Positions 2,595 to 43,542 of a DNA stretch of 44,212 bases are shown piece after piece. The position numbers were made by a program, and so were the translations under genes. Each line of letters opens with the position of its first letter. Position 1 is the stretch's first letter. The stretch is taken from the NCBI GenBank assembly GCA_038216165.1, contig JBBQQJ010000002.1, forward strand, positions 1 through 44,212, read 5' to 3'. Under the pieces are notes generated by a model. It was not told the origin of the DNA. It did no database searches and saw only the letters and a list, made by a program, of their open reading frames with translations. Origin of the DNA: Gemmatimonadales bacterium (lineage in GTDB: Bacteria > Gemmatimonadota > Gemmatimonadetes > Gemmatimonadales > GWC2-71-9).

Positions 2595-3058
2595 GCCTCG
2601 ATCGCAAGAAGCGCCAGCTCAAGATCCTCGAGCTCGTGACCACCCGGCCGATGCGGACGCAGGACGACTTCGCCGATGCCCTGGCCCAGGAAGGATGGGA
2701 GGTCACACAGAGCTCGGTGAGTCGTGACATCTCGCAGCTCGGCCTGGTGAAGATGGACGGCATCTATACCCGCCCGGTCGCCGCACGCCTGATCGAGATC
2801 AGCGATCCCAACGAGCGACGCCTCGCCGAGTCGCTCCTGACGGTGGACCCCGCCGGCGACGCGCTCCTGGTGCTGCACACGCCGCCCGGGGAAGCGCAAC
2901 GCGTGGGGAATGCCCTGGACCTGTTGGCGTGGCCCGAGATCGTCGGCACCATCGCCGGCGACGACACGATCTTCATCGCCGTGGGCAACGCCGCAGCCCA
3001 GTCACTCGTGGCTCGCCGCCTCGGCGCCGTGATGCGGGATGGTGTCGGTGGCGCCTGA
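2591..3058 (+). CDS. argR: arginine repressor
   Basis: Internal ATG at 2591 overlaps the argH stop (ATGA). N-terminal winged-HTH (KKRQLKILELV...TQSSVSRDISQLGLVK) and C-terminal GTIAGDDTIFI arginine-binding/oligomerisation motif. The upstream part of ORF 2021..3058 is out-of-frame overlap with argH. Confidence 0.9.
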   Translation: MSLDRKKRQLKILELVTTRPMRTQDDFADALAQEGWEVTQSSVSRDISQLGLVKMDGIYTRPVAARLIEISDPNERRLAESLLTVDPAGDALLVLHTPPGEAQRVGNALDLLAWPEIVGTIAGDDTIFIAVGNAAAQSLVARRLGAVMRDGVGGA

Positions 3059-5000
3059 GGGGTGCGCGTCCCTGCGCCGTGGGGTGCTGGGGTTTCTCCT
3101 CGTCGGCTGTGGGGGGGGGACCGGCGACGTGGAATGGCCCGTTGTCCTCGGCGATCCGGGCGGCCAGCGACACTCGGCGCTGGCCGATATCGACACCGTG
3201 AACGTCGACCAGCTGGAGGAGGCCTGGCGCTGGTCCACCGGGGAGATGGCGGTCGGCGACCCGGGGCCAGACCAGTTGGTGCCTGGGCGCTTCCAGGCCA
3301 CGCCGGTGATGCGTGACGGCCGGCTCTTCCTGAGCACGCCATTCGCCGCGGCAGTGGCGCTCGATGCCGGCACCGGCGCGGAACTCTGGCGGTTCGACCC
3401 CGCGATCACCAGCCTGGGTCCCTCCTCCAATGGGCACGGTGCCTTCGTGCATCGTGGGGTGGCGGTGTGGGGGCGGTCCCGCGCGGAGCGGGTCTTTCTG
3501 GCCGCCCGGGGCACCCTCTGGGCGCTCGATGCCCGCACCGGCGCGCCGGTGGCCTCCTTCGGGGAAGCCGGGCGGGTGGACCTCGGCGCCCACCTCCGCT
3601 GGCCGGTGGATCGGCGCCATCTCGAGCACACCGCGCCACCCATCGTGGTCGGCGACGTCGTCATCGTGGGCAGTGCCATCGGCGACCAACTCATCTACGA
3701 GCAGGATCCGCCCGGTGACGTACAGGCGTTCGATGCCCGGACGGGTGCGCGCCTGTGGCGGTGGGATCCAGTCCCCCCCCCAGGAGACAGCCTCCGTGCC
3801 GGCTGGGGTGCCCGCTCGGCTGACGTGGCCGGTCATGCCAACGTCTGGTCGTTCATGACCGCCGACACGGCCCGCGGCCTGGTGTTCCTGCCGGTCAGTG
3901 CAGCGAGCAACGACTGGTACGGCGGTGCCCGGCCCGGCGACAACCGGTGGGCGGAGTCGGTGGTCTGCCTCGAAGCCGCGACCGGGCGCCTGGTCTGGGC
4001 GCAACAACTCGTGCACCACGGGCTCTGGGACTACGATCCCGCCGCCCCGCCGTTGCTGGCGACGGTGACCATTGGCGGCACCGCCCGCGACGTCGTGGTG
4101 CAGGCTGCCAAGAGCGGGTTCGTGCACGTGTTCGACCGGACGACGGGCGCCCCGCTGTGGCCGGTCGAGGAGCGGGCGGCGCCGGCTTCCGACGTGCCCG
4201 GCGAAGTGACCTCGCCGACCCAGCCGGTGCCGGTCCGTCCGGCGCCCTTTGCCCGCCAAGGCAGCCGACTCGAGGATGCGGTGGACTTCACCCCGGCGCT
4301 GCGCGACTCCGCCCGTGCCCTGCTCTCCCGGTATCGTCTCGGCCCGCTGTTCACACCACCCTCCCTTGAAGGGACCGTCGTGCGCCCCGGGTGGCTCGGC
4401 GGGGCGGGGTGGGGAGCCACGTCGTATGATCCCGCGAGCGGACTCCTGCTCGTCAAGGCCACCGAACAGCCCTCCCTGGCGCGTCTGGTGCCGCGCGACA
4501 CGGTGGACGCTGCTGGGGCCTACCGCCTGGGTGCCGGGTCACCGAGTGCACCGCTGATCTTGCGGGTGACCCTCGCGCGCCCGGAGGGTGGCACCTATCC
4601 TCCCCTGATGATCTCGGCCGTGAAGCCGCCCTGGGGGACGCTGACCGCCATCGACCTCGCCGATGGGACGATTCGCTGGCAGGTGCCGGTGGGAGATGAT
4701 GCCCGGCTGCGCGAGCATCCCGCGCTCGCGGACCTTGCCCTGCCGCCTCTGGGCGTGGCCGGGCCGTCCGGCGGGGTCACCACCGCGGGGGGACTCACCT
4801 TCCTCACCGGGGGGGGGGATGCCCTCTATGCCATGGACACCCGGACCGGCACCGTGCGCTGGCGCCAGCCATTGGGCATTGCCGGGCACGCCAATCCGAT
4901 GACCTACCGGTCAGGGGGCCGCCAGTTCGTGGTGCTGGCGATCGGGACCGGTGACCGGGCCGAGTTGGTCGCGTATGCGCTGCCGGAGCCGGGGCGATGA
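3039..5000 (+). CDS. PQQ-dependent dehydrogenase-like beta-propeller lipoprotein (quinoprotein glucose/alcohol dehydrogenase family)
   Basis: Signal peptide with lipobox (RRGVLGFLLVGC). Repeated propeller blades with W-docking pattern (ALDAGTGAELWRFD, ALDARTGAPV, AFDARTGARLWRW, AIDLADGTIRWQ, AMDTRTGTVRWRQ). 653 aa. Confidence 0.8.
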   Translation: MVSVAPEGCASLRRGVLGFLLVGCGGGTGDVEWPVVLGDPGGQRHSALADIDTVNVDQLEEAWRWSTGEMAVGDPGPDQLVPGRFQATPVMRDGRLFLSTPFAAAVALDAGTGAELWRFDPAITSLGPSSNGHGAFVHRGVAVWGRSRAERVFLAARGTLWALDARTGAPVASFGEAGRVDLGAHLRWPVDRRHLEHTAPPIVVGDVVIVGSAIGDQLIYEQDPPGDVQAFDARTGARLWRWDPVPPPGDSLRAGWGARSADVAGHANVWSFMTADTARGLVFLPVSAASNDWYGGARPGDNRWAESVVCLEAATGRLVWAQQLVHHGLWDYDPAAPPLLATVTIGGTARDVVVQAAKSGFVHVFDRTTGAPLWPVEERAAPASDVPGEVTSPTQPVPVRPAPFARQGSRLEDAVDFTPALRDSARALLSRYRLGPLFTPPSLEGTVVRPGWLGGAGWGATSYDPASGLLLVKATEQPSLARLVPRDTVDAAGAYRLGAGSPSAPLILRVTLARPEGGTYPPLMISAVKPPWGTLTAIDLADGTIRWQVPVGDDARLREHPALADLALPPLGVAGPSGGVTTAGGLTFLTGGGDALYAMDTRTGTVRWRQPLGIAGHANPMTYRSGGRQFVVLAIGTGDRAELVAYALPEPGR

Positions 5001-6934
5001 GGGCCGGGTGGCGCCGCGTGGTGGTGCTGGCCGTCGTGAGTACCGGCGCGTGTGACGCTCGGCAAGCGATCACGCCGGCCGTGGCGGACCTCACCCCAGC
5101 GACGACCGTTGGCCCACCGGCACCCTGGCGCGTCTCCGACAGCGTACCGCTGACGCGATATGAGCACGCCACGGCCGTCATCGGCCGGGAGCTGTTCTTC
5201 ATCGGTGGCTTCTACAATGAGGCCACGCAGGCGACCGTGCAGGTGGACGTGCTCCACCTCGATACCGGGGTCTGGCGTCAGGCCGCCGAGATGCCGATCC
5301 CCCTCACACACGTGAACGCCGTGGTCTTGGGGGACACGGCGATCTGGATCGTTGGCGGCTTCCGTGGCGACCATCCGGGGCCGGCCGTCGCCGAGACCTG
5401 GCGCTACCGAGTGGCGGCGGACCGCTGGGTCGCCGGACCACCGCTCCCTGCACCGCGCGGCGGTGGACTCACGCTGGCGCGCGGCGACACGTTGCACTTC
5501 GCTGGCGGCTGGTTGCCGGACCGCAACACCGACTCGCCCGATCACTGGATGCTTCGCCCCGGCGCCACGACATGGGAGCCTCGGGCGCCCATTCCCTCCC
5601 CACGCGGGCACCTCTCGGGCTTCGTGTACGACGGGCATCTGTACGCGGTGGGTGGCAACATCGGGCATGATCCGATCCCGGTCGATGTACCGTTCGTGCA
5701 CGTGTACGACCCCGTTCATGATCGATGGAGTGAGGCCCCCCCCCTGGCGCGCCCGCACACGCATACCGAGCCCGGTACGGTGTGGTGGCGCGACCGTGCC
5801 CTCTTCATCGGGGGGCGGGACCTGACGAGCTGGCGCTGGAACCTCGATGAGATCGTCAGCTGGAATCCGACGAGCGGTCGCTCGCGCCTCGAGGCCCTGA
5901 TGCCGGTCGGTCTCCTCGCGCCGACGGGCGTCGTGGTGGGCGACACCCTCGTGGTGGGGGCGGGCGCTCCCCGCATCAACAATCCCACCAACCCGCTCAT
6001 CTGGCGGGCGCCATTGCTCGGGGCGTGGCACCGCCTGCCGGCATTGCCTGCGGCACTCGGCGAGGTGTCCGCCGCCGTCATGGGCGACCGCCTCTTCCTG
6101 CTCGGGCAGGGCCATCGCATGACGTGGATGTTCGACCTCGCCCGCGGCCGGTGGGAACCGGCGGATCGCTGGGCGGCCCGGCCGATTCCCGGTCACCATC
6201 ACGGTGCCGAGGTGCTGGGCGGGGAGTTGTGGCTGCTGGGCGGACTCGGGGCGAGCGGTTCACGCGGGATGGTGCAGGTGTTCAATCCTGCACGAAATGC
6301 CTGGCGTCTCGGGCCCCCTTTGCCCCGTCGCGTCGGGGCTGCGGCCACGGCGATGATTGATGGCCGTCTGTACGTCGCCGGCGGGATTGCGGGTGATCAC
6401 ACCGTGCAGGATGCGTGGGTCCTCGACCCGCGGGACAGTGTGTGGCAGCCGATCGCGCCGTTGCCGTGGCCCCGCAATCATGCTGCCGCCGCCACCGATG
6501 GCGTCCGGTTCTATCTCTTCGGTGGGCGCGGGCCCGACAGCGGTGACGGCGAGATGGTGGCGAATGGCTATGACGATGTCCAGATCTACGATCCACGCAC
6601 CGACCGGTGGGTCACCAGCGACGGCAGTCCCGGGTCGCCGCCGCCACTGCCGGTTCGTCGAGGCGGGATGGGAAAGGCCGTCTTCCTGCACGGGGAGTTC
6701 TGGGTGATCGGGGGGGAGACGCTCGATGGTCCCGGTGCCAATGCGGGCGGAACCTTCTCACGCGTCGATATCTACGATCCCCAGCGCAACACCTGGCGTG
6801 AGGGACCACCGCTCCAGGTGGCGCGCCACGGCATCTTCCCCGTGATTGACGATGGGCGCATCCTCGTGGTCGGCGGGAGCGAAGTGCGCGGTGAGGGCAG
6901 CTCCACGGTGTTCGAGGTCCTGCGCCCGCGCTGA
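4997..6934 (+). CDS. Kelch-repeat (galactose oxidase / NanM-like) beta-propeller protein, secreted
   Basis: ATGA overlap with the upstream stop and an N-terminal signal-like segment. At least 10 Kelch-like units of the form hhhhGG...W..h..hP..R (e.g. LFFIGGF, IWIVGGF, LHFAGGW, LYAVGGN, LWLLGGL, LYVAGGI, FYLFGGR, FWVIGGE, ILVVGGS). Confidence 0.8.
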   Translation: MRAGWRRVVVLAVVSTGACDARQAITPAVADLTPATTVGPPAPWRVSDSVPLTRYEHATAVIGRELFFIGGFYNEATQATVQVDVLHLDTGVWRQAAEMPIPLTHVNAVVLGDTAIWIVGGFRGDHPGPAVAETWRYRVAADRWVAGPPLPAPRGGGLTLARGDTLHFAGGWLPDRNTDSPDHWMLRPGATTWEPRAPIPSPRGHLSGFVYDGHLYAVGGNIGHDPIPVDVPFVHVYDPVHDRWSEAPPLARPHTHTEPGTVWWRDRALFIGGRDLTSWRWNLDEIVSWNPTSGRSRLEALMPVGLLAPTGVVVGDTLVVGAGAPRINNPTNPLIWRAPLLGAWHRLPALPAALGEVSAAVMGDRLFLLGQGHRMTWMFDLARGRWEPADRWAARPIPGHHHGAEVLGGELWLLGGLGASGSRGMVQVFNPARNAWRLGPPLPRRVGAAATAMIDGRLYVAGGIAGDHTVQDAWVLDPRDSVWQPIAPLPWPRNHAAAATDGVRFYLFGGRGPDSGDGEMVANGYDDVQIYDPRTDRWVTSDGSPGSPPPLPVRRGGMGKAVFLHGEFWVIGGETLDGPGANAGGTFSRVDIYDPQRNTWREGPPLQVARHGIFPVIDDGRILVVGGSEVRGEGSSTVFEVLRPR

Positions 6935-7011
6935 TTCCCCAGTGCGTCCCTTCCTGCCATGCGCATCGTGATCATTGTCGACGCGGACCCCCGGCGCCTC
7001 CCGCGTGCCGC

Positions 7012-7659
7012 CTAGACCTCGAGCAGGGCCAGCACCTCAGTCGGGGAGCCGCAGTAGTAATGCGGTCCGGCAGGTGCCAATTGCTCCCGGGTGAACGGTC
7101 CCCATGTCACGCCGATCGTGGTGACGCCTGCCCCGCGCCCGCTGTGAATGTCGTGCGTGGAGTCACCGATGAACACGGCGTCGGCGGGCGCGGTCCCGAG
7201 GGTCTGCAGCGCGCGTGCCACGGGCTCGGGATGCGGCTTCGGATGCTCGACATCGTCGGCGCCCACGATCACCTCCATGATCCCCTCGAGCCCCACGAGA
7301 CGCAGCCCGCGTTCGGCCCCATGGCGGTTCTTGCTGGTGACGAGCCCGAGGCGGCACCCAGCGGCACGGGCCCGGCGGACCATCTCGACCGTCCCGGGGA
7401 AGGGACGCACCCGCTGGTCGTGGTATGTCAGGTTGTACTCGCGATAGCTCGCGATCCACGTCTCGATCTCCACGGCGCTGCCACCCATCTCCCGGAACAC
7501 CGTGCGCAGCGGCGTGCCGATGCCCGCCACGATCACCTCGCGGGTGAGGGGAGGGAGGCCGTGGACCGTGAAGGCATGCAGATAGCTATCGATGATCAGT
7601 TCGATCGAATCGATCAGGGTGCCGTCGAGGTCGAAGAGTACGGTGGGGAAGCGTGGCAT
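7012..7659 (-). CDS. HAD-superfamily phosphatase (phosphoglycolate phosphatase / PpaX-like)
   Basis: HAD motif I VLFDLDGTLIDS, motif II VTSK, motif III/IV K...FIGDSTHD. I chose the internal ATG at 7659 (MPRFPTVLFDLDG). The upstream 59 codons of ORF 7012..7836 overlap the helicase gene and look non-coding. Confidence 0.85.
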   Translation of the reverse strand: MPRFPTVLFDLDGTLIDSIELIIDSYLHAFTVHGLPPLTREVIVAGIGTPLRTVFREMGGSAVEIETWIASYREYNLTYHDQRVRPFPGTVEMVRRARAAGCRLGLVTSKNRHGAERGLRLVGLEGIMEVIVGADDVEHPKPHPEPVARALQTLGTAPADAVFIGDSTHDIHSGRGAGVTTIGVTWGPFTREQLAPAGPHYYCGSPTEVLALLEV

Positions 7660-7663
7660 CGGT

Positions 7664-9751
7664 TCAACGTAGCGGGTCCCGCCCCACCGGCAACGTGGCG
7701 CGCGCCACCACCCACCCCGTGACGCGTGCGGGCCGGATGATGGACGGCAGTCCGTGCACGAGCAGTGCCGCATCGGGGGCGGTGGCCAGACTCTCGAGCC
7801 GCCAGCGGATTCCCAATGGACCGCCACGGATGGCATGGATCACGAGCTGGTCGAGCGCGGCCAGGCTCGCGGCATCACGCACCCGGGCTGCACGACGTGC
7901 CAAATGCTGGCAGCGCCAGACGAGGCCGCGGTGGGCCACCCTGGGTTCCGTCGCGGCGATGGCGGCCGCGAGCACCACCGCCTCGTCGGCACCAGCCACG
8001 CCGATTGCGGCAGGCGGGATCATGAGGAGGCGGGAGAGTCGTTCCGGGGCGATCGGCCCTGGTGCGGTCACATCGGCCACCACCAGCACCGCGCCGTGGT
8101 GGCACCCGGAGCGCAGCGCCACGAGGGCAACGGGGAGCGCGACCGGGATGGCCGGGTCGGTTACGTGCACGTGTGCGTGATCCGGCCATGAGGCGGCGAG
8201 CACCGTGAGCCACCGCTCAGCGAGGGCGCCTTTCCGGTGCACGCGCGCGGCAAGATCGAGGAACGGGACCAGTGCCGGGGCGGGATGCCGCTCGATCACC
8301 TCGACGTGCGCGGCGGCCTGCCCGGGACGGATCACCCGCCCATTCCGCTGGTCGCGCCGCATAGCGGTCCACGGCAGGTCGAGGTGCACCACGCGTGATG
8401 CTCCCTGCAGGTCGAGCCCCTCGGCCACGACATCCGTCGCCACGAGCACGGTGGGTGTGCGCTGCCGAGCTCGCCAGGATGCGCGTTTCGGTCCGAAGGC
8501 TCGCAGGACCAGGTCGCGTGGCACGCGGTGCGGCCCGATGCCGGCCTCCGTGCCGGTGATCCACGCGATCCCCCCCCCAAGTGCATCCCGCAGGAGATGG
8601 GCGGTGGCACGGTGGCGACAGAACAGGATGGTGGGGAGTTCGTCCCGCAGGAGGTCCTGCACGGCGGCCAGCCAGTCCGCATCGGCCGCGGGATGGGACA
8701 AGGCCCCGTTGATCCGCGTCAGGTCGGCGGTGGGAAGTTGCGGCCGGCCCTCGGCGTGGTCCGGGATGACGAGGGCCCAGAGGACACCCTGGGCACAGTC
8801 CGGGCCCGCGAACTGGCGCAGCAGGGCCCGGCTCCCGCCTCCGGCGAGCTCCCACTGCTCGAGCAGCGTCCGGTACCGGCGCAACGCGGCATGAAAGGCG
8901 GCGTCGCTCGAGGCCGCCGCGTCGGCGAGCACCGACCGGAGGAGGCGCCGGGTGCCGGCCTCGGGCGCGAGGGCGAGGGAGCGGATCACCCGGGCGGCTC
9001 GCCGTGCACGACGCGCCTCCCGGGCAACCTCCGGGAAGCCACGGTCGGTCCTCACGGCTGCTGACGATGACGCCTGCGTGCGGATCACCACCCGACCGAG
9101 CGCGGGGGGCGGCGCCTCCCAGCTCGGCAATGCGGCCAGACTGGGAATCCCGTCCAGCACGAGGGCCTCATCGGCCAGCAGCAATTGCAGCAACGCGGCC
9201 AGATCGGACAGCGCATTGACGATTGGTGTGGCCGTCAGGAAGGCGGTGGGCCGCCCGACGATCCATCGGCCAACGGTCCGCGTGCACCGCGCCTGGAGAT
9301 TGCGCAGTCGATGTGCCTCATCGACGATCACGACGTCGGCCTCCACCGCGGGCGGCGTGCCGCGGCTGCAGCGCTCGAGGGAGTGCAGGTGGACCCGCCG
9401 CAGCACGGTGTCAGCCGCCGCGCGCCACTGCGGCAGCAGCACCGCCGGGGCGATGACCGTCACCCGGCGACCGACGGCGGCCGCCGCCGCCAGGGCGATC
9501 CACGTCTTGCCCGCCCCCACCGGCTCGGCGAGGACTGCCCCCCCCAGGCCGCGCAGCGCTGCGACGAGACGGCGCCAGGGCTCCTCCTGTCCCCGCCGGA
9601 GCCAGGGCGGGGGTGGATCGGCACACTGTGCGGGGGTCCACGCCTCCCGGCACGCGGCCATCAGGCCGGCGCCATCGTCCGACTCCGCCACGCGGGGTCG
9701 CGGTGCGCGGGTGCGCACCCGGAGATGATCAGCGCGGATTTGTGGCCACAT
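7664..9751 (-). CDS. SNF2-family (SF2) DNA helicase/translocase with uncharacterised C-terminal extension
   Basis: Walker A EPVGAGKTW (9503..9517), DEAH box VIVDEAHRLRN (9311..9322), motif III LTATPIVNALSDL, helicase-C LVATDVVAEGLDL, motif VI QRNGRVIRPGQ (8317..8349). ATG at 9751 lies 23 nt inside the 3-prime end of the methyltransferase gene. Confidence 0.85.
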   Translation of the reverse strand: MWPQIRADHLRVRTRAPRPRVAESDDGAGLMAACREAWTPAQCADPPPPWLRRGQEEPWRRLVAALRGLGGAVLAEPVGAGKTWIALAAAAAVGRRVTVIAPAVLLPQWRAAADTVLRRVHLHSLERCSRGTPPAVEADVVIVDEAHRLRNLQARCTRTVGRWIVGRPTAFLTATPIVNALSDLAALLQLLLADEALVLDGIPSLAALPSWEAPPPALGRVVIRTQASSSAAVRTDRGFPEVAREARRARRAARVIRSLALAPEAGTRRLLRSVLADAAASSDAAFHAALRRYRTLLEQWELAGGGSRALLRQFAGPDCAQGVLWALVIPDHAEGRPQLPTADLTRINGALSHPAADADWLAAVQDLLRDELPTILFCRHRATAHLLRDALGGGIAWITGTEAGIGPHRVPRDLVLRAFGPKRASWRARQRTPTVLVATDVVAEGLDLQGASRVVHLDLPWTAMRRDQRNGRVIRPGQAAAHVEVIERHPAPALVPFLDLAARVHRKGALAERWLTVLAASWPDHAHVHVTDPAIPVALPVALVALRSGCHHGAVLVVADVTAPGPIAPERLSRLLMIPPAAIGVAGADEAVVLAAAIAATEPRVAHRGLVWRCQHLARRAARVRDAASLAALDQLVIHAIRGGPLGIRWRLESLATAPDAALLVHGLPSIIRPARVTGWVVARATLPVGRDPLR

Positions 9752-12674
9752 CACGGAGCGCCCGTTGTTCGTCGGGGGACAACTGGAGCACCACCGCGGC
9801 GAAAGCGTCGGCATCCTCGGCCTGGAGGAATGGCATGCCAAGTCGGCGTGCAGGGAAGGGGAGGCCACCCACCACCCGCGCCCCGAAGCGACGGTACCCT
9901 CCTGCGGCCGCCTCGGCGCCCAGCGCGGCGAGCGCCCGCATCCAGGTGGTGGTAAGCCACCGCGCGATCACTTCGGCCTGTTCCGCATTCCCGGCCACCA
10001 CCACGTAGCAACTGTTGAGGGGGACCACGTCGGCTGGGAGCGTCGCCGTGGCACGGAGTGTGGGCGCCAGATCTGGCCACGCCACCCGGTGGGCGGCGGT
10101 GGCGGCCTCAGTGCGAAACAGCCGCCACCAGCAGGCGCCTCGCTGATCGGCACGATGCTCGAGGCGGGATCGAAACTGGGCCAGGTGCGCTGCCACTGGG
10201 GGGGGGAGTTCACGCCACGGTTCGCCGCGCCGGTCCGCCGGCCAGAGGATCCGACTGCCGGGCCGCGGGCCACCCGGGCCGAAGTCGCGTCCGCGCATCG
10301 CGGGGCGGGTCCATGCCGCGAGCGCTGCCGGTGGATCGAGGAACGCTGCATTGGCGCCGGTCTTGACGCCGAGCCGGGGCGGGTGGGTCTCCCCGAGGGT
10401 GGGGAAGTCCTCCGCGAGACGTCGGGTGAGGCGCTGGACCTCCGGATCGGCCAGCGACCAGGTGGGGGCCATGCGCCAATCGGCCTGAGGCACACGCGGC
10501 CCGTCACCGGCGAGGTCCGTGCTGATCCCATGCCCGGGCGGACTGGCGCCACGCGAGGCGATGAGGGCCATCGGATAGATGGTTGCGTCGAATCCGGCAC
10601 GAGGATCACCCGCGAGGTCGGCGACGCGATGCAGCGTGTGGTGATGGACCAGCGCTGCGCGCGCTGTGCGCGCGTAGGAGACGGTGAGCAGCTTGCTTGG
10701 CAGCAGGAAGGCCACGGTGCCTCCCGGGCGCAGCAGTTCCACCGCCCGCTCCACGAAGGCGATGGCCAGGTCGGGCTGATGGCGGTAGCCGTTGCCCGAA
10801 CCGCGCCACCACCGGTAGCGGGCGCCCAGCGCCGTGCGGGTGGCCGTCGCCAGCCGCTCGGCGCGCACCCACGGCGGGTTGCCGACCACGAGATCGAATC
10901 CACCCTGTCGCTCGAGGATCGGAGCGTAGGCGGTTTCAAGCGCGAAGGGGGCGGCCGTGGCATCGCGCTGCATCGCCGCGCGCTCCCGGCGCACCCGCCG
11001 CAGCAAGGACCGCAACCCTGCGAGGTGCTGCCGGTCGCGGGCATGGGGAGCGGAGCGTTCACCGAACAGGGTTGGAATGGCGGTGGATGCGACGGCATCC
11101 CGGACCCGGTCACGCAGCATTGCCTCGTGGTCCGCGAGGGCGGCCTCAAGGGTGCGGCGCTCGGCGTGGCGCAACGCACGCACTGCGGCTCGCTTGGCGG
11201 ATCCGTGGCTGGAGACCACCGCTCGCCGATGGACGGCCAGTGCGAGCCCCGCGCGCGGGGCGAGCGGGTGACCATGGAGTGGATCAAGGAGGGCATCGCC
11301 GGCCCGGATGGCGGTATCGAGATTCGGGAGCGGGGTCACCTCACGCGGGGCGCGACCACGCATGGCACGCAACGACTCGAGCCAGAGGCGCAGTTCGGTG
11401 ATCCGTACCGCTCCAGGGTGCCGATCGACGCCATGCAGTTGCCGGGTCAGGATGTGGCGCACGCGCCGTGCATCGCGCACGCCGGGGCCATGGAGCAGGT
11501 CGAGCGTCCCCACGAGAAAGGCCCCGGAGCCCACGGCCGGATCGAGCACCCGCAGCGTCGACATCCGGCGGAGCAAGGTCGGGTCCGGGTCCTCCAGGGC
11601 GGTCGCGAGCCGCTCCTCGTCCATGCCGACGCGCGGGGCGAGATGGCAGGCGACGGCTTCACGAACCAGTGCGCGCACCATGGCCGGCGGGGTGTAGTAC
11701 GCACCGGCGGCCCGGCGACTCTCCGGTTCCATCACTCCCTCGAACACGCGGCCAAGCAGCCCGGGGGTCACGCGGCCATCCTCTGCCTCCGGGTCGAGGG
11801 TGACCTCGATGCGATCGATCACCAACTCGAAGAGCGCCATCCAACCCGGTCGCGACAGGTCCCAGGCCCGGGCGCGCTCGAGCGCATGCGGCTCGAACAG
11901 CCCCCCGTTCAGGAACGGCACAGCGCCGAACGCTGCGGCGCGGCGGGAGCGGTCGCGCACACGACGATTGAGGGTGCCGAAGAACAGGGGGTGCAACAGG
12001 TGGCGACCCGGATCGCGGTGGCGCGCGAGCACGTCGTCAACGGCGCAGCGCAGAAAGTCCTGCCGTCCGTCGAGCCATCCCTCCGCTTCCACGAATCGCA
12101 GGAAGAGGAGGCGCGTGGCCTGCAGCAGTGCCCATCCCTCGCGATCGGCGCGTGGCACCACCGCGGGCAACGCGGTGGCCACGCGGTCGATCGCGGTGTG
12201 GAGCATGCCGAAGGCACGTCGGCCCGCGGCATCGATGTCGAGGGCATCCGCGGCGCGGGCGGCCGCGGCCAGCAGTGGCGCATCGGCCAGGCGTTCGCGC
12301 TGCAGCCGGCGGATGGCAAGCGGCAGCAGGTCGTCGCACGGGACCACCGTGGCCCGGATCGGGGCGATGGTCACGATGAGCGTCCGAATCCCACTCGCTG
12401 CGTCGTCTGCGAGCATGAGTCCCAAGTACCCGCGCCGGGCCAGGGTGCGCGCCATCGCGGTGGCGCTGCGCGGCGGCGCCGCGATGCTCCAGCAGGGGAG
12501 GGGGCCCAGGCGGCCAACCTCCAGGGCCGGTACCGGGAGGCTCGCCGGGACGGGCACGACCCATGCCTCGCCCCCGAGGCGATGGATCAGGGCAGCATGG
12601 CGAGTTGCGTGGTCGGGAAGGGTGGCGAGCGGCATGCCGGGACGATCACGGGCCGGTGCCGTCGGGGGGGGCAC
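9729..12674 (-). CDS. N6-adenine DNA methyltransferase, type IIG/IIL / BREX PglX-like (Eco57I-family MTase with TaqI_C-like specificity domain)
   Basis: FLNGGLFEP helical-domain motif (11889..11915), SAM motif I VLDPAVGSGAFLV (11511..11549), catalytic motif IV VVGNPPWV (NPPW at 10869..10880), and C-terminal GVKTGANAAFL typical of TaqI_C target-recognition domains. 981 aa from GTG 12674; alternative ATG at 12635. Confidence 0.85.
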   Translation of the reverse strand: MPPPTAPARDRPGMPLATLPDHATRHAALIHRLGGEAWVVPVPASLPVPALEVGRLGPLPCWSIAAPPRSATAMARTLARRGYLGLMLADDAASGIRTLIVTIAPIRATVVPCDDLLPLAIRRLQRERLADAPLLAAAARAADALDIDAAGRRAFGMLHTAIDRVATALPAVVPRADREGWALLQATRLLFLRFVEAEGWLDGRQDFLRCAVDDVLARHRDPGRHLLHPLFFGTLNRRVRDRSRRAAAFGAVPFLNGGLFEPHALERARAWDLSRPGWMALFELVIDRIEVTLDPEAEDGRVTPGLLGRVFEGVMEPESRRAAGAYYTPPAMVRALVREAVACHLAPRVGMDEERLATALEDPDPTLLRRMSTLRVLDPAVGSGAFLVGTLDLLHGPGVRDARRVRHILTRQLHGVDRHPGAVRITELRLWLESLRAMRGRAPREVTPLPNLDTAIRAGDALLDPLHGHPLAPRAGLALAVHRRAVVSSHGSAKRAAVRALRHAERRTLEAALADHEAMLRDRVRDAVASTAIPTLFGERSAPHARDRQHLAGLRSLLRRVRRERAAMQRDATAAPFALETAYAPILERQGGFDLVVGNPPWVRAERLATATRTALGARYRWWRGSGNGYRHQPDLAIAFVERAVELLRPGGTVAFLLPSKLLTVSYARTARAALVHHHTLHRVADLAGDPRAGFDATIYPMALIASRGASPPGHGISTDLAGDGPRVPQADWRMAPTWSLADPEVQRLTRRLAEDFPTLGETHPPRLGVKTGANAAFLDPPAALAAWTRPAMRGRDFGPGGPRPGSRILWPADRRGEPWRELPPPVAAHLAQFRSRLEHRADQRGACWWRLFRTEAATAAHRVAWPDLAPTLRATATLPADVVPLNSCYVVVAGNAEQAEVIARWLTTTWMRALAALGAEAAAGGYRRFGARVVGGLPFPARRLGMPFLQAEDADAFAAVVLQLSPDEQRALRDVATNPR

Positions 12675-12711
12675 GATCCGCCGCGCGTGGGCACGCCTCC
12701 ACGCGGCACCA

Positions 12712-13443
12712 TCAGGGGAGTCGTGTCACCTCGATCGCGCGACTCCCCGTGCCGAGCATGCGGATCCCCTCGGCGCCGCGCACCTCTTGGGTGCTCTCCT
12801 CCTCAAGCTGCGCGGAGAGCACCGGGCCCGCGAGGTTCGTCACCACCCGATGGGTACCGGTGGTGGTGGTGCGCAGCGTCGCCTGGCCGAACGGGGTGAC
12901 GCTCCCGCCGGCGGTCTGTCCCGTCAGCGCCACCGTGGCGCCGTTGCGCGAGGCGATCCGCCACGTCGTGGCGGTCCGCGCCTGCTCCCGCCCGTTCCCC
13001 GTGGTGGTGTCGCTGACGGTCGAGTCGGTCCAGGGGATGCCGTCGAGCCGGCCGAGGACGCGCGTCGGGAAGAGCAACCCGACGGCACCGAGCAATTGCG
13101 TGGCACCGACGTTTCGTGGCTGGAGTCCGATCGGCGCGACGAGTTCCCCGTCGTCGACCCGGAGGGTATAGCGGGTGCCAGTGGCGGGGACCAACGCGGC
13201 CAGGGAAACGCGGGTGTTCCCCGAGCGGAAGGCGACGGTGTCGATCGTCACCTCGACAAGCCGCAGGCCGGCTGAATCGCGGGAGACAACGAGCAGGCGG
13301 CCCGTGGCAGCAATGTCGGTGCGGTCGGTTCCCTGTCCGATGGCGCTGGCGTCCACTTCCTGCCGCGAGGCGATGGTGAAGGCATAGCGCGCCGTGTCGA
13401 TCGGAGCCTGCAGGGCGACGGTGGCCAGGGCAGTGAGCAGCAT
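12712..13443 (-). CDS. hypothetical secreted protein
   Basis: 243-aa ORF with N-terminal signal-like MLLTALATVALQAP, an AAGGA Shine-Dalgarno upstream, and a Thr/Gly/Val-rich beta-type composition. No family recognised. The competing 333-aa ORF 12803..13804 is Arg/Pro-rich and looks spurious. Confidence 0.55.
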   Translation of the reverse strand: MLLTALATVALQAPIDTARYAFTIASRQEVDASAIGQGTDRTDIAATGRLLVVSRDSAGLRLVEVTIDTVAFRSGNTRVSLAALVPATGTRYTLRVDDGELVAPIGLQPRNVGATQLLGAVGLLFPTRVLGRLDGIPWTDSTVSDTTTGNGREQARTATTWRIASRNGATVALTGQTAGGSVTPFGQATLRTTTTGTHRVVTNLAGPVLSAQLEEESTQEVRGAEGIRMLGTGSRAIEVTRLP

Positions 13444-13467
13444 GCAGGACGTCCTTCGGCAGGTCGG

Positions 13468-14595
13468 CTAGGTGGCCACGCGGTAGGTCCGGCCGCGCCA
13501 TTCGATGCGGCGTCCCCCGCGGGCGGTCGATCGCGCCACGATCAGGAGCGCGAGCAGTGCGCCCAGTGGATAGCCCAGGGCGCACCACACAGGGATGCGC
13601 ATCCCGAAGGAGACGAGGGCCCAGAACAGCAGTGACACACCGATCGCCACCGTCGCCGCCCCGACGCCCACGCCGGCAAGGAGCAGGGCGAACGGGACCA
13701 GCCACCAGGCAAAGCCGAGGGCCAGGCCGAGCGGGGCGAGGGCGCGGAGCACCGGGTTCGCCGGTGCGGACTGACGCGCACCGACGTAGAGGTTCTTCGA
13801 CCACCCCTCCACCATCTCGCGCAGTGATCGGTACATCCGGGTGCTGATCAGCGTCTCGCCAAACATCAACCGCACGCGCTGCCCCGAGCGGAGGAACGCC
13901 TGCGCGAGCGCCAGGTCCTCGACCACCTCGCCCTGCACGGCGGCATGGCCACCCACCGCGTCGTAGGCCGTGCGGCGCACCATGATGAACTGCCCATTGG
14001 CCACGAGTTGGTCGGGGCGCGTGGCCGTGTTGACCCGATGGGGCGGGTAGCGGAGCCCCAGCACCACCCAGATCTGCGGCATCACGATCCGTTCCCAGAA
14101 GGTGACGCAGGTTTGCTGGGTGGTGAGCGTGAGCAAGGCGGCACCGTCAGCCTCCATCGCCCCGGTGGCGTGCGCCAGCAGGGGGGGGGAGTGCGTGGTG
14201 TCGGCGTCGGTGAAGAGCAGGTACTGCCCCGTCGCCTCGGCCGCGCCCTGGGCGCACGCCCAGGGTTTGCCGAACCATCCCGCCGGCAGCTCGGCCCCGC
14301 GCACCAGACGGAGCCGCGGGTCCGTGCGCGCCATCGCCGCCACCCGCTCGGCGGTGTCATCGGTGGATCGATCGTCCACGACGATCAGCTCGAAGGCGTC
14401 GTATGTCGAGGCGAGGATGGACTGCACCACCGTCTCGATGGTGCCCGCCTCGTTGCGGGCGGGGATGATCACGGAGACCGGGATCCCCGAGGCGGGGTCG
14501 GCCTTGGCCACATCGGGGTCGCGCCGGGCGAGCTTGGCGATCCCCAGGAAGGGGGCACCCCAGAGCAGTCCCGGGAGGGAAGCGAGCAAGCTCAT
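13468..14595 (-). CDS. family 2 glycosyltransferase, membrane-anchored (HpnB / carotenoid-glucosyltransferase-like)
   Basis: GT-A motifs VSVIIPARNE, LIVVDDRSTDDT, GWFGKPWACAQG, LLFTDADTTH, plus C-terminal TM helices. Confidence 0.85.
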   Translation of the reverse strand: MSLLASLPGLLWGAPFLGIAKLARRDPDVAKADPASGIPVSVIIPARNEAGTIETVVQSILASTYDAFELIVVDDRSTDDTAERVAAMARTDPRLRLVRGAELPAGWFGKPWACAQGAAEATGQYLLFTDADTTHSPPLLAHATGAMEADGAALLTLTTQQTCVTFWERIVMPQIWVVLGLRYPPHRVNTATRPDQLVANGQFIMVRRTAYDAVGGHAAVQGEVVEDLALAQAFLRSGQRVRLMFGETLISTRMYRSLREMVEGWSKNLYVGARQSAPANPVLRALAPLGLALGFAWWLVPFALLLAGVGVGAATVAIGVSLLFWALVSFGMRIPVWCALGYPLGALLALLIVARSTARGGRRIEWRGRTYRVAT

Positions 14596-14605
14596 CTGCG
14601 GCGCC

Positions 14606-15163
14606 TCAGCGGCGCACGGCGACGGTGTCCAGCTCGGCCTCGAGGGCCTCGAGTTGACGCTCGATGTCCTCCGTGGAGGCTTCCGTCAGTGACTGCGTCT
14701 GCCGGTCGGTCATCAGGAGCGAGGCCACCAAGGCGTCGGTGTAGCCGACGACCGCCTGGGCGATGCCGCGGTCGACGATGTTGTTGAGCCGGATGAACAC
14801 CGCCACCGCACGGCGCGGGCGCATCGCGGCCACGAAGGCGCCAATGTACCGGATGAGGAGGAGCCGGAGCTGTTGGATCTCCTCGACCACCTCGCCCGCA
14901 GCGAGCCCGCGAGTGGCCGCCGTCCGCCCGTAATGCTCCATGAGGTGTCCCCAGACCGGCTTGGCTTCCCGGCGCAGGGGGCCTAGCATTTCGATGAGCC
15001 CGTTGGCGACCAGCCGGAGCTGGCGGGTAAGGAGCGGACGGGGAAAGCCGGTGCTGCTGGCGTGCTCCTCAAGCCAGTCGGCCCATTCCGTCACCATCGG
15101 CTCCCGGGTCTCGAGAATCGCCCGGGCTGCGGCAATTTGTGTCGAATGGGACGAGCGGACCAT
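14606..15163 (-). CDS. hypothetical all-helical protein (weakly RsbRD-N sensor-domain-like) with C-terminal coiled coil
   Basis: I chose ATG at 15163 because AGGAGG lies 8 nt upstream. The longer ORF start (15358) would overlap the divergent ldcA gene. The G..AA.RGLAAGEVVEEIQQLRLLL pattern resembles RsbRD_N; the assignment is tentative. Confidence 0.55.
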   Translation of the reverse strand: MVRSSHSTQIAAARAILETREPMVTEWADWLEEHASSTGFPRPLLTRQLRLVANGLIEMLGPLRREAKPVWGHLMEHYGRTAATRGLAAGEVVEEIQQLRLLLIRYIGAFVAAMRPRRAVAVFIRLNNIVDRGIAQAVVGYTDALVASLLMTDRQTQSLTEASTEDIERQLEALEAELDTVAVRR

Positions 15164-15206
15164 TGCATTCCCCTCCTGAAGTCCACCAATCGTAACCGGA
15201 GCCGCC

Positions 15207-16166
15207 ATGTCGCCCAACCCGATCCTTCCTCCCCGGCTCCGTCCGGGGGCCCGTGTGGCGCTCGTCGCCCCGTCGGGTCCCCTGCTGGAGCGGGATGACC
15301 GCACCCGGGGGAGCGAACTTGCGGTCGCCCTGGGATACGAGCCGGTCCTGATGCCCAATGTGGGCAGTGCCTACGGTTACCTCGCCGGGCGGGACGACGA
15401 ACGGCTCGCCGACCTCAACGCGGCCCTGGGCGACCCCAACATCGACGCCGTCTGGTGCCTCCGCGGCGGGAACGGGATGAACCGGATCATCCATCGCGTG
15501 GATTTTGCCGCTTTCGCCCGCCACCCGAAGCCGGTGATCGGCTACTCGGACATCACTGTCCTCCTGCTGGCGCTCTGGCAGCGCACCGGCATCGTGACGT
15601 TCCACGGGCCGATTGCCCGCACGCCGATGGGCAACTTCCAGCGCTATCACTTCGACCGGGTCCTCACCGACATCGCACCGGCGGGGGTGCTCGGGCGCCC
15701 GGCCCCGAAGCCGGACGTGCTGGTGCCCACCGACGGTCGGGTCATCACCATCACGCCCGGTCGGGCGCGCGGGCGCCTCGTGGGGGGCAACCTGACCCTG
15801 GTCCAGTCGCTGATCGGCACGCCCTATTTCCCCGATCTCACGGGAGCGATCCTCTTCCTCGAGGACGTAGGCGAGGACGTCTACCGGATCGATCGGATGC
15901 TGGCGCACTTGCGCCTCGCCGGGAAGCTCGCCGGACTCGCCGGCGTGCTGCTCGGGCGCTTCACCGACCTCACCCGGGCCACCGGAGACGGCGGGTTGGG
16001 GCTCGACGAGATCTTCCATACCTACTTCGGCACGCTCGGCGTTCCGGTCGCCGCCGGCTTTCCGTTTGGCCACATCGACGAGCAGTGGACGCTCCCGGTG
16101 GGGGTGATGGCGGAGCTTGATGCCGAGCGCCGCGAACTGGCGCTGCTGGAGGGGGCCGTGCGCTGA
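15207..16166 (+). CDS. ldcA: LD-carboxypeptidase (peptidase S66, muramoyltetrapeptide carboxypeptidase)
   Basis: GARVALVAPSGP, YLAGRDDERLADLNAAL, CLRGGNG, nucleophile motif IGYSDIT, C-terminal GHI. GGAG Shine-Dalgarno 7 nt upstream. Confidence 0.85.
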   Translation: MSPNPILPPRLRPGARVALVAPSGPLLERDDRTRGSELAVALGYEPVLMPNVGSAYGYLAGRDDERLADLNAALGDPNIDAVWCLRGGNGMNRIIHRVDFAAFARHPKPVIGYSDITVLLLALWQRTGIVTFHGPIARTPMGNFQRYHFDRVLTDIAPAGVLGRPAPKPDVLVPTDGRVITITPGRARGRLVGGNLTLVQSLIGTPYFPDLTGAILFLEDVGEDVYRIDRMLAHLRLAGKLAGLAGVLLGRFTDLTRATGDGGLGLDEIFHTYFGTLGVPVAAGFPFGHIDEQWTLPVGVMAELDAERRELALLEGAVR

Positions 16167-35943: not shown

Positions 35944-37184
35944 CGCTCTCCCGTCGTGACCTCCTCGCGCTGGCTGGCACCACCCCGGCGCTGGCCTGGT
36001 TGCCGCGCGTGGGGTCAGGGGGGGGGCGCTCCGGTGCGCCCCTGCCCAGCGGCCCGGCGCCCGATGATGAGGCGGCATGGGAGCAGGTGTCCCGCGCCTT
36101 CCTCGTGGACGGCCTCCACTGCAACACCGGCACCTATGGCGCCTGTCCGATCCCGGTGCTCGAGGCGACCGTGGGTCATCTGCGAGCCTTCGAGCGGATC
36201 ACCACGCAGGCGCACGTGGATGGGGCGGCGTTGCACGCCGAGCTCGAGGCGTTCCTCGGCGCCTGGCCCGGGAGCGTGGCCGTGGTGCGCAACACCACCG
36301 AGGCCATGAACATCGTCGCCAACGGGATCGACCTCGCCCCCGGCGACGAAATCGTCACCACCACCCACGAGCACATCGGCGGCCGGTGTTGCTGGGAGCT
36401 CGCGGCACGGCGGCGCGGGGCGGTGCTCCGGACGTTCGATCCGCCGCTCGATCCCGACAGTGAGGCGCGCCAGGCCGCGGCGTGGATGGAGCAGGTCACG
36501 CCGCGGACCAAGGTCTTCTCGATTTCGCACGTGCACTTCACCACCGGGCTGGTGGAGCCGGTGGAGGCGCTGGTCCGCATGGCGCGTGAGCGGGGGATCA
36601 TCTCGGTGATCGACGGCGCGCATCCCCCGGGACTGTTCGCCCTCGACCTGCAGCGGATCGACGCCGACTACTACGCCAGCTCGCCGCACAAGTGGCTGCT
36701 CGCGCCCAAGGGGACGGGGCTCCTCGTCACGCGCCCCGACCGCGTGGCCACCACCTGGCCGCTGGTCGCGTCGGGGGAATGGGACGTGGACGACGCGCGC
36801 AAGTTCGAGCACGTCGGTACCGCGAATGAATCGCGCCTGGCTGGGTTGCGGGCGGCAGTGGCGTTCCATCAGGCGATCGGCCGCGAGGCGATCGAGGCAC
36901 GACTCCGCCTCCTCGCCGCACGGTTCGATGCCGCACTCCGGACAATCCCGCGCGTGCGGGTGCACTCGCCACGTCGCGAGGCGTTCCGGGGGGGGATGGT
37001 CGCCTGCACGGTGGAGGGGGTGCCAGCGGCGACGCTGCAGGCGGAGCTGGGGCGCGAGCGCATCCGCACCCGGCTGATCGCCGAGCACGGGCTGAACTAC
37101 CTGCGGCTCAGCGCGGGGCTCTACCTCGTGCCGCGGGACGTGGATCGCGTGGTGGCGCGGGTGGCGGACTTGGCACGCGGCTGA
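35940..37184 (+). CDS. class V aminotransferase-fold PLP enzyme with Tat signal (isopenicillin-N-epimerase / cysteine-desulfurase-like)
   Basis: Twin-arginine signal MTLSRRDLLALAGTTPALA. The PLP-lysine context SSPHKWLLAPKGTGLL and FSISHVHFTTG are typical of AAT class V. Confidence 0.85.
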   Translation: MTLSRRDLLALAGTTPALAWLPRVGSGGGRSGAPLPSGPAPDDEAAWEQVSRAFLVDGLHCNTGTYGACPIPVLEATVGHLRAFERITTQAHVDGAALHAELEAFLGAWPGSVAVVRNTTEAMNIVANGIDLAPGDEIVTTTHEHIGGRCCWELAARRRGAVLRTFDPPLDPDSEARQAAAWMEQVTPRTKVFSISHVHFTTGLVEPVEALVRMARERGIISVIDGAHPPGLFALDLQRIDADYYASSPHKWLLAPKGTGLLVTRPDRVATTWPLVASGEWDVDDARKFEHVGTANESRLAGLRAAVAFHQAIGREAIEARLRLLAARFDAALRTIPRVRVHSPRREAFRGGMVACTVEGVPAATLQAELGRERIRTRLIAEHGLNYLRLSAGLYLVPRDVDRVVARVADLARG

Positions 37185-37876
37185 GGCGGGGTGGCGGTGG
37201 CACAGACCGGGCGCACCGGGCAGCGGTCGCAGTGCATCACGCGGGCCGTGCAGACCAGGGCGCCGAGCTCCATGAGGGCCTGATTGGTGGTCCAGGCATC
37301 GAGGCCGCGTCGGCGCACGAGGGCTTGGGCGGTGGCCGCCAGATGGCGATCCGCGGCGGCGCCGTGCCGGAGTCCGGGGTGGAACACCCGCCGGAGCACC
37401 CGGGAGACATTGGTGTCCACCGCAGGCTCCGGGAGCTCGTAGGCGAACGAGGCGACCGCCCCGGCCGTGTACGGCCCGACCCCCGGCAGCGCCCGGAGGG
37501 CGAGGGCGGTCCGTGGCAATTGGCCCTGATGGTTCGTCACCACCTCGCGCGCCAGCCGCTGGAGGTTCGCGGCGCGGCGATAGTAGCCCAGTCCGGCCCA
37601 GGCCTCACGGACGCGGGAGGGTCGGGCGGCGGCCAAGGCGTCGAGGGAGGGGAAGCGCCGAAGGAAGCGATGCCAGTATCCTTCCACCCGGGCCACTTGG
37701 GTCTGCTGGAGCATCACCTCGGACACGAGGATCTGGTACGGGTCGCGCGTACGGCGCCACGGCAGGTCACGGCCCTCCCGGCGGAACCAGGCCAGGAGCC
37801 GGCGTTTGAAACGGCGACGAAGCGCCGGATCCGGGGTGAGGGAAGCGTTCACGGCAGTGCAACATAGGAGTAGCAT
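37121..37876 (-). CDS. mutY: A/G-specific adenine glycosylase, short form (HhH-GPD + [4Fe-4S] loop, no MutT-like C-terminal domain)
   Basis: LPWRRTRDPYQILVSEVMLQQTQV, GLGYYRRA, HhH LPGVGPYTAGAV, and FeS cluster loop CTARVMHCDRCPVRPVC (C-x6-C-x2-C-x5-C). Start ATG 37876 or GTG 37852. The upstream part of ORF 37121..38686 is antisense to mlaE. Confidence 0.75.
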   Translation of the reverse strand: MLLLCCTAVNASLTPDPALRRRFKRRLLAWFRREGRDLPWRRTRDPYQILVSEVMLQQTQVARVEGYWHRFLRRFPSLDALAAARPSRVREAWAGLGYYRRAANLQRLAREVVTNHQGQLPRTALALRALPGVGPYTAGAVASFAYELPEPAVDTNVSRVLRRVFHPGLRHGAAADRHLAATAQALVRRRGLDAWTTNQALMELGALVCTARVMHCDRCPVRPVCATATPPQPRAKSATRATTRSTSRGTR

Positions 37877-37903
37877 GCACCACGAGCGAGCGGGGAACCG
37901 GCG

Positions 37904-42005: not shown

Positions 42006-42020
42006 TTCCCCCTCACCCCT
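42006..42020 (+). repeat. TTCCCCCTCACCCCT 15-mer immediately downstream of phr
   Basis: Identical to 43559..43573. A partial inverted partner TGAGGGGG lies at 41951..41958. Confidence 0.35.
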
Positions 42021-43423: not shown

Positions 43424-43448
43424 CGAGAGGTGGGTTTCCGGTTGGTCA

Positions 43449-43500
43449 GGGTGAACGGGGTGAGGGGTGAACGGGGAACGGGGAACGGTGAACGGGGGAA
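43449..43500 (-). repeat. C-rich heptad tandem repeat element, copy 2 (C-rich on minus strand)
   Basis: The minus strand reads TTCCCCCG TTCACCG TTCCCCG TTCCCCG TTCACCCC TCACCCCG TTCACCC. It contains the 31-mer shared with copy 1 and ends about 25 nt upstream of the phr start (43423). Confidence 0.6.
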
Positions 43501-43542
43501 CACTGGGCCACCGGGTGAAATGATCGCGCGATGAGACCGGCT

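Follow-up and report, generated by a model that had tools for sequence, protein, structure and literature searches.

The 44,212-nt stretch of DNA analysed here (the window; positions 1 to 44,212 of contig JBBQQJ010000002.1 of a Gemmatimonadales bacterium, assembly GCA_038216165.1) carries two overlapping minus-strand genes, encoding a predicted gamma-class N6-adenine DNA methyltransferase of the PglX/MmeI/Eco57I type with its own target recognition domain (TRD) and no nuclease (9729..12635, 968 aa), and a predicted intact Snf2 ATPase (7664..9751, 695 aa). The pair is inherited vertically at a fixed chromosomal locus across the phylum Gemmatimonadota and is best read as descending from, or being sister to, a mobile module that combines an MmeI/PglX-like methylase with a PLD-nuclease-Snf2 protein. 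We see about an even chance that it represents a domesticated, nuclease-free, motor-coupled N6-methyladenine (m6A) methylation system with a resident chromosomal role. The preliminary description of this DNA had left two alternatives, a domesticated epigenetic or repair module and a stand-alone methylation-plus-translocase system with a further effector; the former is favoured by vertical inheritance, fixed synteny, the constrained TRD and the loss of the PLD domain of the mobile relatives, and the latter becomes the less favoured rival.

Both genes are real far beyond chance, as each has hundreds of full-length homologues (E=0). The methylase had been described as a 981-aa minus-strand open reading frame (ORF), which exists as a maximal ORF reaching up to GTG 12674, as does a maximal ORF of 734 aa for the Snf2 protein. 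However, the public gene call (P0001) places the methylase start at ATG 12635, where the homologue alignments also begin, and the start is corrected to that position; the resulting coding sequence (CDS) is supported by the ORF list, Pfam and an AF2 model. The 695-aa Snf2 frame from ATG 9751 agrees with the public gene call (P0121) and is likewise supported by Pfam and an AF2 model. Translation of the coordinates reproduced exactly every motif that had been claimed for the two proteins.

In the predicted methylase the S-adenosylmethionine (SAM) motif I (VLDPAVGSGAFLV, 11511-11549) lies N-terminal to the catalytic NPPW (10869-10880) and is followed by a TaqI-like C-terminal TRD, which is the arrangement of the gamma class. 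Pfam matched the protein to Eco57I (5.5e-21), to N6_Mtase and, weakly, to DUF7814 and MmeI_Mtase. Since a sequence search of the PDB gave only weak, partial matches for both proteins of the pair, fold searches were performed with AF2 models, which were built on family alignments and are of usable quality (pLDDT 80.5 for the methylase and 81.8 for the Snf2 protein). The methylase model matched BrxX/PglX best (1.8e-17; PDB 9ewz, 8q56 and 8c45, E~1e-17), and also CamA, M.BseCI, MmeI, BpuSI and DrdV. Motifs, Pfam domains and full-length fold matches agree with the earlier proposal of a self-contained, nuclease-less gamma-class adenine methyltransferase with its own TRD.

The methylase begins with an alpha/beta domain (aa 1-105, 12321..12635), defined by a block of the AF2 model with pLDDT 82-95. 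In the alignment of 78 species used for all methylase motif and conservation statistics, this domain evolves fast (mean pairwise identity 0.25), with no column conserved at 95% or more, no D/E/K triad and no D...ExK. The following helical spacer (aa 106-330, 11646..12320) is delimited by sequence alignment with MmeI, residues 182-375 of which align with residues 179-392 of the methylase, and by the weak DUF7814 match; it contains the invariant stretches ALDVDAAGRR, TRLLFLRFVE and FLNGGLF, the last being part of FLNGGLFEP at 11889-11915. The catalytic domain (aa 331-700, 10536..11645), with SAM motif I and NPPW, is split by a long helical insert (aa 456-570, 10926-11270), modelled as long helices at residues 460-557. 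The motifs NGGLF, DPAxGSG and NPPW are each intact in 78/78 species. The C-terminal TRD (aa 701-968, 9732..10535), which contains GVKTGAN (within GVKTGANAAFL, 10338-10370), LNSCY and GGxRRF, aligns structurally with the TaqI-like TRDs of CamA, M.BseCI, MmeI and PglX, and its mean pairwise identity is 0.41, compared with 0.49 for the catalytic domain. Of the Pfam matches expected beforehand, N6_Mtase/Eco57I, SNF2 and Helicase_C were obtained, but TaqI_C fell below the threshold of E<=0.01 in the window methylase, and the TRD assignment therefore rests on structure and on a relative from Nostoc.

The partner carries the hallmarks of the Snf2 family, namely Walker A (GAGKT, 9503-9517), DExH (DEAH, 9311-9322), motif III (LTATP, 9224-9238), motif VI (QRNGRVIRPGQ, 8318-8350) and a helical insertion between the two lobes. 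Pfam recognised SNF2-rel_dom and Helicase_C. A short N-terminal tail precedes RecA lobe 1 (aa 51-240), the helical insert (aa 241-345), which bears a family-specific 'SS..A' motif, lobe 2 (aa 346-520) and a C-terminal domain (aa 521-695, 7667..8191) composed in the AF2 model of a beta-sheet and a helical bundle (strands at 538-567 and 677-688, helices at 590-664). GxGK[TS], DExH, [ST]ATP and QRxGRxxR are all intact in 56/56 species, the sample used for the Snf2 statistics. The model matched Snf2-family enzymes only (RapA, SMARCA4, Chd1, Rad54, CSB, ISWI and ZorD), RapA being the top match (6.9e-14), and LSH was among the weak sequence matches. Domains, invariant motifs and fold thus bear out the SNF2-type ATPase of the preliminary description. 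The C-terminal domain has a mean pairwise identity of 0.21 and no column conserved at 95% or more among the 56 species; as such columns are missing both here and in the methylase N-terminal domain, neither offers a candidate nuclease active site.

The two genes overlap by 23 nt (9729..9751, minus strand), the methylase stop codon TGA (9729-9731) lying inside the Snf2 frame, which opens with ATG at 9749-9751; the overlap reported previously was reproduced. Homologues were scanned with one genome per species, and the locus statistics derive from the best 80 of at least 563 species genomes that encode a relative. In 71/72 testable Gemmatimonadota loci the methylase is followed immediately by a Snf2 gene in the same orientation; in the untestable ones, where no Snf2 gene is visible, the contig DNA ends at or just past the methylase. 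In 70/73 related loci the Snf2 frame is already open upstream of the methylase stop and has a start codon in the vicinity, frequently at -4 or -8. This arrangement supports translational coupling of the two genes.

The best 80 of the at least 563 relatives all belong to Gemmatimonadales, Gemmatimonadaceae or Gemmatimonas, with identities of 32-65%, and the named homologues of both proteins are from Gemmatimonadota throughout. The window shares macro-synteny with a relative whose methylase is 53% identical, including genes for arginine biosynthesis, a HAD phosphatase, an S66 LD-carboxypeptidase, an alpha/beta hydrolase and a MacB-type ABC transporter. Methylase identity correlates across loci with that of its neighbours (Spearman rho 0.91 for Snf2, 0.88 for HAD and 0.72 for the S66 peptidase). 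No orthologue was found among 2.9 million IMG/VR viral contigs or PLSDB plasmids, which yielded only relatives of at most 30% identity. Synteny, co-divergence with the neighbours, a GC content like that of the flanks and the lack of viral or plasmid orthologues together establish vertical inheritance at a fixed locus. The pair had been judged by eye to match its flanks in composition, to lack adjacent mobility genes and not to be a recent island, and all of this holds: GC is 0.70-0.74 across the locus and the same in the flanks, Pfam scans are free of mobility genes, and the pair diverges in step with its housekeeping neighbours. It has the attributes of a lineage-wide housekeeping methylase, namely vertical inheritance, a conserved locus and constrained specificity. 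Experiments are feasible because the pair, here overlapping by 16 nt, is present in the cultured Pseudogemmatithrix spongiicola (complete genome CP130612.1).

The nearest annotated relatives of both proteins, at 22-30% identity, are encoded on plasmids of Nostoc, Deinococcus and Thermus. They belong to a mobile module consisting of an Eco57I/MmeI-type methylase with TaqI_C, one to three small ORFs and a 'helicase-related protein' of about 1100 aa with PLDc_2(HKD) and Snf2 domains (loci L083-L110; e.g. L083 2482-10915, L085 7611-14396 and L086 4090-10697). This module, the closest relative of the window pair, was overlooked in the preliminary description. In loci retrieved by the methylase alone, the PLD-Snf2 gene adjoins it in 23/25 cases from IMG/VR, and it does so on 3/3 plasmids. 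The PLDc_2 domain occupies residues ~20-195 of the plasmid proteins, while the window Snf2 protein aligns with them from its residue ~51 and only from their residue ~240-250 onwards. A tblastn search with three PLD domains against 1.37 Mb around 89 chromosomal copies gave a best E of 0.26. Because the Snf2 alignment begins after the PLD domain and the search for PLD sequences came up empty, the chromosomal family is the nuclease-less form of a restriction-type module.

Both partners of the mobile module are homologous to those of the window and are neighbours on one strand; common to the two are the helical spacer, the Eco57I-type catalytic domain, the TaqI-like TRD and the Snf2 core with its helical insert. 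Peculiar to the mobile module are the N-terminal PLD nuclease of about 230 aa, the one to three small genes, highly divergent TRDs and carriage on plasmids and viral contigs, whereas the window pair lacks PLD, has overlapping genes and a constrained TRD, and is chromosomal and vertically inherited. The window pair thus has the neighbouring homologous partners that define the module and not the N-terminal PLDc_2/HKD domain on the Snf2 protein. The module itself appears to be a separate, as yet undescribed restriction-type system, since no curated family name reaches its threshold: all NCBIfam models score below cut-off, and PADLOC offers only 'C3a139 HKD+Snf2'. A published table (PMC9881135) lists in passing Cj0031-like type II restriction-modification genes next to a CDS with PLD and SNF domains.

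The TRDs of the two groups behave differently. At a catalytic-domain identity of 0.45-0.55, TRD identity is 0.43 in Gemmatimonadota and 0.20 among the mobile relatives, and the ratio of TRD to catalytic identity is 0.85 and 0.42, respectively. The mobile modules diversify their TRDs as restriction systems do, while the chromosomal family keeps its TRD constrained; besides synteny, this is the main argument for placing its role beyond the arms race.

A profile search of 1.84 billion representatives retrieved full-length methylase relatives of 1000-1135 aa, the named members of the more distant clusters being Bradymonadia, Bradymonadaceae/Lujinxingiaceae, 'Myxococcales bacterium' and 'Deltaproteobacteria bacterium CG2_30'. 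In 5/5 contigs of Bradymonadia-like Myxococcota (among L111-L116) the methylase gene overlaps by 4 nt with a downstream Snf2 gene of 565-849 aa, and none of these five Snf2 proteins has a PLD domain. These pairs share the catalytic motifs and the helical-insert motif with those of Gemmatimonadota, and their flanks differ from contig to contig and are non-mobile, so that the methylase-Snf2 pair is the sole conserved unit across both phyla. The two genes, whose co-occurrence across phyla had been raised as a question, are adjacent in both groups. Judging from these sequences, the Bradymonadia-like occurrence may reflect either an ancient inter-phylum transfer or an independent loss of the nuclease.

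In the domesticated system proposed here, the methylase would write m6A at one specific sequence, probably asymmetric and probably on one strand, by analogy with PglX and MmeI. The two proteins would be made in a fixed proportion and act as a complex, in which the Snf2 subunit may use ATP to move along or remodel double-stranded DNA; its movement could give the methylase access to occupied DNA, or could read the methylation state at a distance. The resident role might be to provide an epigenetic mark used in maintaining the genome, in keeping track of replication or repair, or in regulating genes, rather than arms-race restriction. A bolder version, which we offer tentatively and would not expect to hold in full, regards the pair as a bacterial counterpart of eukaryotic Snf2-assisted methylation. 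On this view a housekeeping adenine methyltransferase would have the ATP-driven Snf2 motor as an obligate subunit and would depend on it to establish or preserve a strand-asymmetric m6A mark across the whole genome. The mark would serve chromosome transactions and not the killing of foreign DNA, and Gemmatimonadota and Bradymonadia would have kept the pair as a fixed trait for hundreds of millions of years since a restriction-type module lost its PLD nuclease.

If the pair is indeed domesticated, it would show a defence-type module that became fixed in the chromosome by losing its nuclease, while the mobile, ancestor-like form survives to be compared with it. As a two-protein model it would help to ask what a PglX-type methylase gains from a Snf2 translocase, a question relevant to the still unsettled and apparently nuclease-free mechanism of BREX. 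Gemmatimonadota, abundant in soil but little studied, would also gain an epigenetic marker at the level of the phylum.

Several points weigh against the domesticated system. BREX likewise has no obvious nuclease, and the closest defence-library relatives of both proteins are defence components (DrmMI, DrmD, type IIG and PLD-Snf2). Vertical inheritance and a constrained TRD are compatible with defence, and an effector could be encoded elsewhere in the genome. What is proposed for the methylation motif, for complex formation, for ATPase activity and for translocation derives from family knowledge. The figure of at least 563 species is a count of genomes and not a fraction of Gemmatimonadota genomes, and the mobile side of the TRD comparison comprises only 22 sequences. 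In one locus (L002, 10001-22937, on a 3.3-Mb Gemmatimonadota contig) the two genes lie 8.7 kb apart, and in two loci from metagenome-assembled genomes the methylase frame appears interrupted where the tblastn match shifts frame (L030, ~12010-12070; L037, ~11887-12160), which a frameshift, a pseudogene or an assembly error could explain. Finally, a 2026 preprint states that no methylated motifs had been detected in Gemmatimonadota by an earlier survey of marine metagenomes; should the pair be present in those genomes, the methylase may act conditionally or at low occupancy. The reported lack of motifs sits oddly with a methylase that is intact throughout the phylum.

Among the other explanations, the one with the greatest claim, though we regard it as somewhat unlikely, is a minimal, nuclease-free defence resembling BREX or DISARM. 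The methylase would mark self DNA at a specific site, and the Snf2 protein would load at unmethylated sites on incoming DNA, where it would act as a roadblock or remodeller that blocks replication or transcription, or would recruit a host nuclease whose gene lies elsewhere. The best matches in the PADLOC library are the class 1 DISARM proteins DrmMI (3.6e-27, methylase) and DrmD (3.7e-19, Snf2), both partial; the methylase fold is nearest to BREX PglX/BrxX, the nearest outgroup is the mobile restriction-type module with its PLD-Snf2 effector, and restriction-like systems typically show such tight coupling in translation between modifier and ATPase. Against such a function stand the fixed synteny and co-divergence with housekeeping neighbours throughout the phylum, the lack of orthologues on the viral contigs and plasmids searched, and a TRD that is constrained while those of the mobile relatives diversify to background identity; nor did the 44 kb or the other loci of the family that were examined reveal defence or mobility genes, and no nuclease was found in either protein or nearby. 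It is less probable still, and in our view improbable, that the two genes are merely co-transcribed, the methylase being a solitary regulatory enzyme like Dam, CcrM or CamA and its neighbour a RapA-like factor for transcription or for the recycling of RNA polymerase. This reading draws on RapA as the leading fold match of the Snf2 model, on the solitary methylase CamA as one of the best fold matches of the methylase, and on the housekeeping context of both genes. However, the overlapping adjacency is kept in two phyla whose flanks share nothing else, and the remote relatives of both genes are also neighbours on viral contigs and plasmids, which indicates that the partnership predates the chromosomal family. 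The NCBIfam RapA model gives 15.9 bits against a cut-off of 576, and the N-terminal Tudor domains of RapA are absent, as the Snf2 protein starts only some 50 residues before lobe 1.

That the pair belongs to a described multi-gene system (class 1 DISARM, BREX or BR/Hma) with its other genes elsewhere in the genome appears very improbable. Both proteins show remote similarity to components of these systems (DrmD/DrmMI, PglX, BrxHI and HmaA), and the scans covered the window and related loci rather than whole genomes. Scores with the curated NCBIfam models for PglX, DrmD, DpdE and the PLD anti-phage protein nevertheless lie 5- to 16-fold or more under their cut-offs (PglX 14-56 bits against 400-900, the best being 56.1 against 900; DrmD 64 against 610 and 950; DpdE 65 against 500). 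The BR/Hma methylase has a different architecture (DUF1156-type; PMC12839542), PglZ, BrxC, DrmABC and DUF499 are missing from the window and from the gene lists of nine related loci (+/-8-10 kb), and only the pair is common to both phyla. The least probable of the readings, with next to no weight in our assessment, is a decaying remnant of a restriction-modification system after nuclease loss. The missing PLD domain and the two interrupted methylase frames would fit decay, but all catalytic motifs are intact and full lengths are kept in the 78 and 56 species sampled, diverged to 32-65% identity, which requires long-term purifying selection on both enzymes. The domesticated methylation system thus remains the favoured reading.

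The genes around the pair form a housekeeping setting. Pfam scans of ~30 further window ORFs revealed no PglZ, BrxC, DrmABC, PLD, HsdR/S or mobility genes, in line with what had been reported for the 44 kb. No tRNA lies near the locus, and scans of 6800-15500 for promoters and terminators found nothing. A HAD-family phosphatase gene (7012..7659, minus strand, 215 aa; Pfam HAD_2 1.5e-47) begins 4 nt past the Snf2 stop and resembles PpaX/phosphoglycolate phosphatase (NCBIfam PpaX 200.9 bits, under the cut-off of 218). It is probably co-transcribed with the pair, and most Gemmatimonadota loci whose DNA extends far enough have it downstream in the same orientation, but it is not conserved next to the pair in the Bradymonadia-like loci, and its membership of the methylase-Snf2 system is uncertain. 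As a curiosity and not as evidence, gph of Escherichia coli sits in the dam operon.

Between the arginine genes and the HAD gene, the plus strand at 3039-6934 encodes a pyrroloquinoline quinone (PQQ)-dependent dehydrogenase and a 645-aa Kelch-repeat protein. As the syntenic relative L001 has ArgR in this place, the stretch is a lineage-specific insertion beside the operon. Upstream of the methylase, two ORFs on the same strand, of 243 aa (12712-13443) and 250 aa (14606-15358), flank a CruG/HpnB-like family-2 glycosyltransferase gene and have no Pfam or NCBIfam match. The gene immediately upstream of the methylase is not conserved, the 243-aa ORF having no similarity to the 181-aa gene of L001. 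At the split locus L002, the two genes are set apart by PIN/MazE and PIN/RHH toxin-antitoxin pairs, an acyl-CoA dehydrogenase and glycoside hydrolases, with a GmrSD_N gene upstream. The far end of the window contains DNA-repair genes on the minus strand, for an HhH-GPD base-excision glycosylase with an N-terminal extension of ~300 aa and a photolyase (37121-38686 and 42020-43558); these have no evident link to the pair.

No description of the methylase-Snf2 pair was found in the literature searched, which covered Gemmatimonadetes, Bradymonas and orphan methyltransferases with SNF2 partners, and two metagenomic methylome papers touch Gemmatimonadota in passing only. The m6A motifs RGATCY, ATGCAC and CCAGN7TCA, each with an occupancy above 99%, have been reported for Gemmatirosa kalamazoonensis. 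The asymmetric ATGCAC is plausibly of the type that this enzyme class could target, and we do not assign it to the window methylase.

Compared with known systems, the pair does not belong where it was filed at first, as a minimal BREX, DISARM or type-ISP module, the curated scores being far below their cut-offs and the defining partners absent from the window and related loci. BREX was set aside for want of PglZ and BrxC in the window or the nine loci and because of the low PglX score. PglX/BrxX, the best structural match, shares with the window methylase the absence of a nuclease domain, an own TRD and NPPW and FLNGGLF-type motifs, but it has ~1200 aa and works with PglZ, BrxC, BrxA, BrxB and BrxL, none of which is present here. 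Class 1 DISARM also pairs a Snf2 ATPase with an N6-adenine methylase. The likeness to DrmD and DrmMI noted at the outset is real, these being the best PADLOC matches, but it is remote and limited to core domains (residues 668-936 of the 1347 of the DrmMI profile and a stretch of ~100 residues of DrmD); neither the window nor the related loci examined encode DrmA, DrmB (DUF1998) or DrmC (PLD), and DrmD and DrmMI remain below their thresholds.

The type IIL/IIG enzymes (MmeI, BpuSI and DrdV) and type ISP enzymes (LlaGI and LlaBIII) have a co-linear methylase-TRD layout, and type ISP would share with the window pair the functional coupling of methylase-TRD to an ATP-driven motor. These enzymes differ in carrying a PD-(D/E)xK or Mrr nuclease in the same chain, to which type ISP fuses the motor as well. 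The window encodes two separate proteins with no Mrr or PD-ExK domain, its motor is of the Snf2 family and not the SF2 motor of type ISP, and the N-terminal 105 aa of the methylase have no PD-(D/E)xK and no conserved catalytic residues. BR/Hma looked promising, as it combines an HKD-Snf2 protein with a methylase, but it requires DUF499 and has another class of methylase: it consists of a DUF499 AAA+ ATPase, a DUF1156-type methylase with a TRD insert and a Snf2 helicase with Tudor/HKD domains (PMC12839542). HmaA matches the window Snf2 protein weakly (2.3e-10), on Helicase_C.

In eukaryotes, DDM1 and LSH-HELLS assist DNMTs, and the fungal DNMT5 is a methylase-Snf2 fusion. The logic of joining a Snf2 ATPase to a DNA methyltransferase is the same, as an analogy only, since the eukaryotic enzymes are cytosine-5 methylases acting on nucleosomal DNA and there is no evidence of common descent of the pairing. 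The closest counterparts in the proposed role are Dam, CcrM and CamA, the main examples of conserved solitary methylases in bacterial epigenetics. Like the window methylase, they are lineage-wide and chromosomal, lack a cognate nuclease and have a constrained specificity, and CamA is also close to it in structure. They have no coupled ATPase motor, however, and none of them is known to need a motor protein; the obligatory Snf2 partner is the new element of the window pair.

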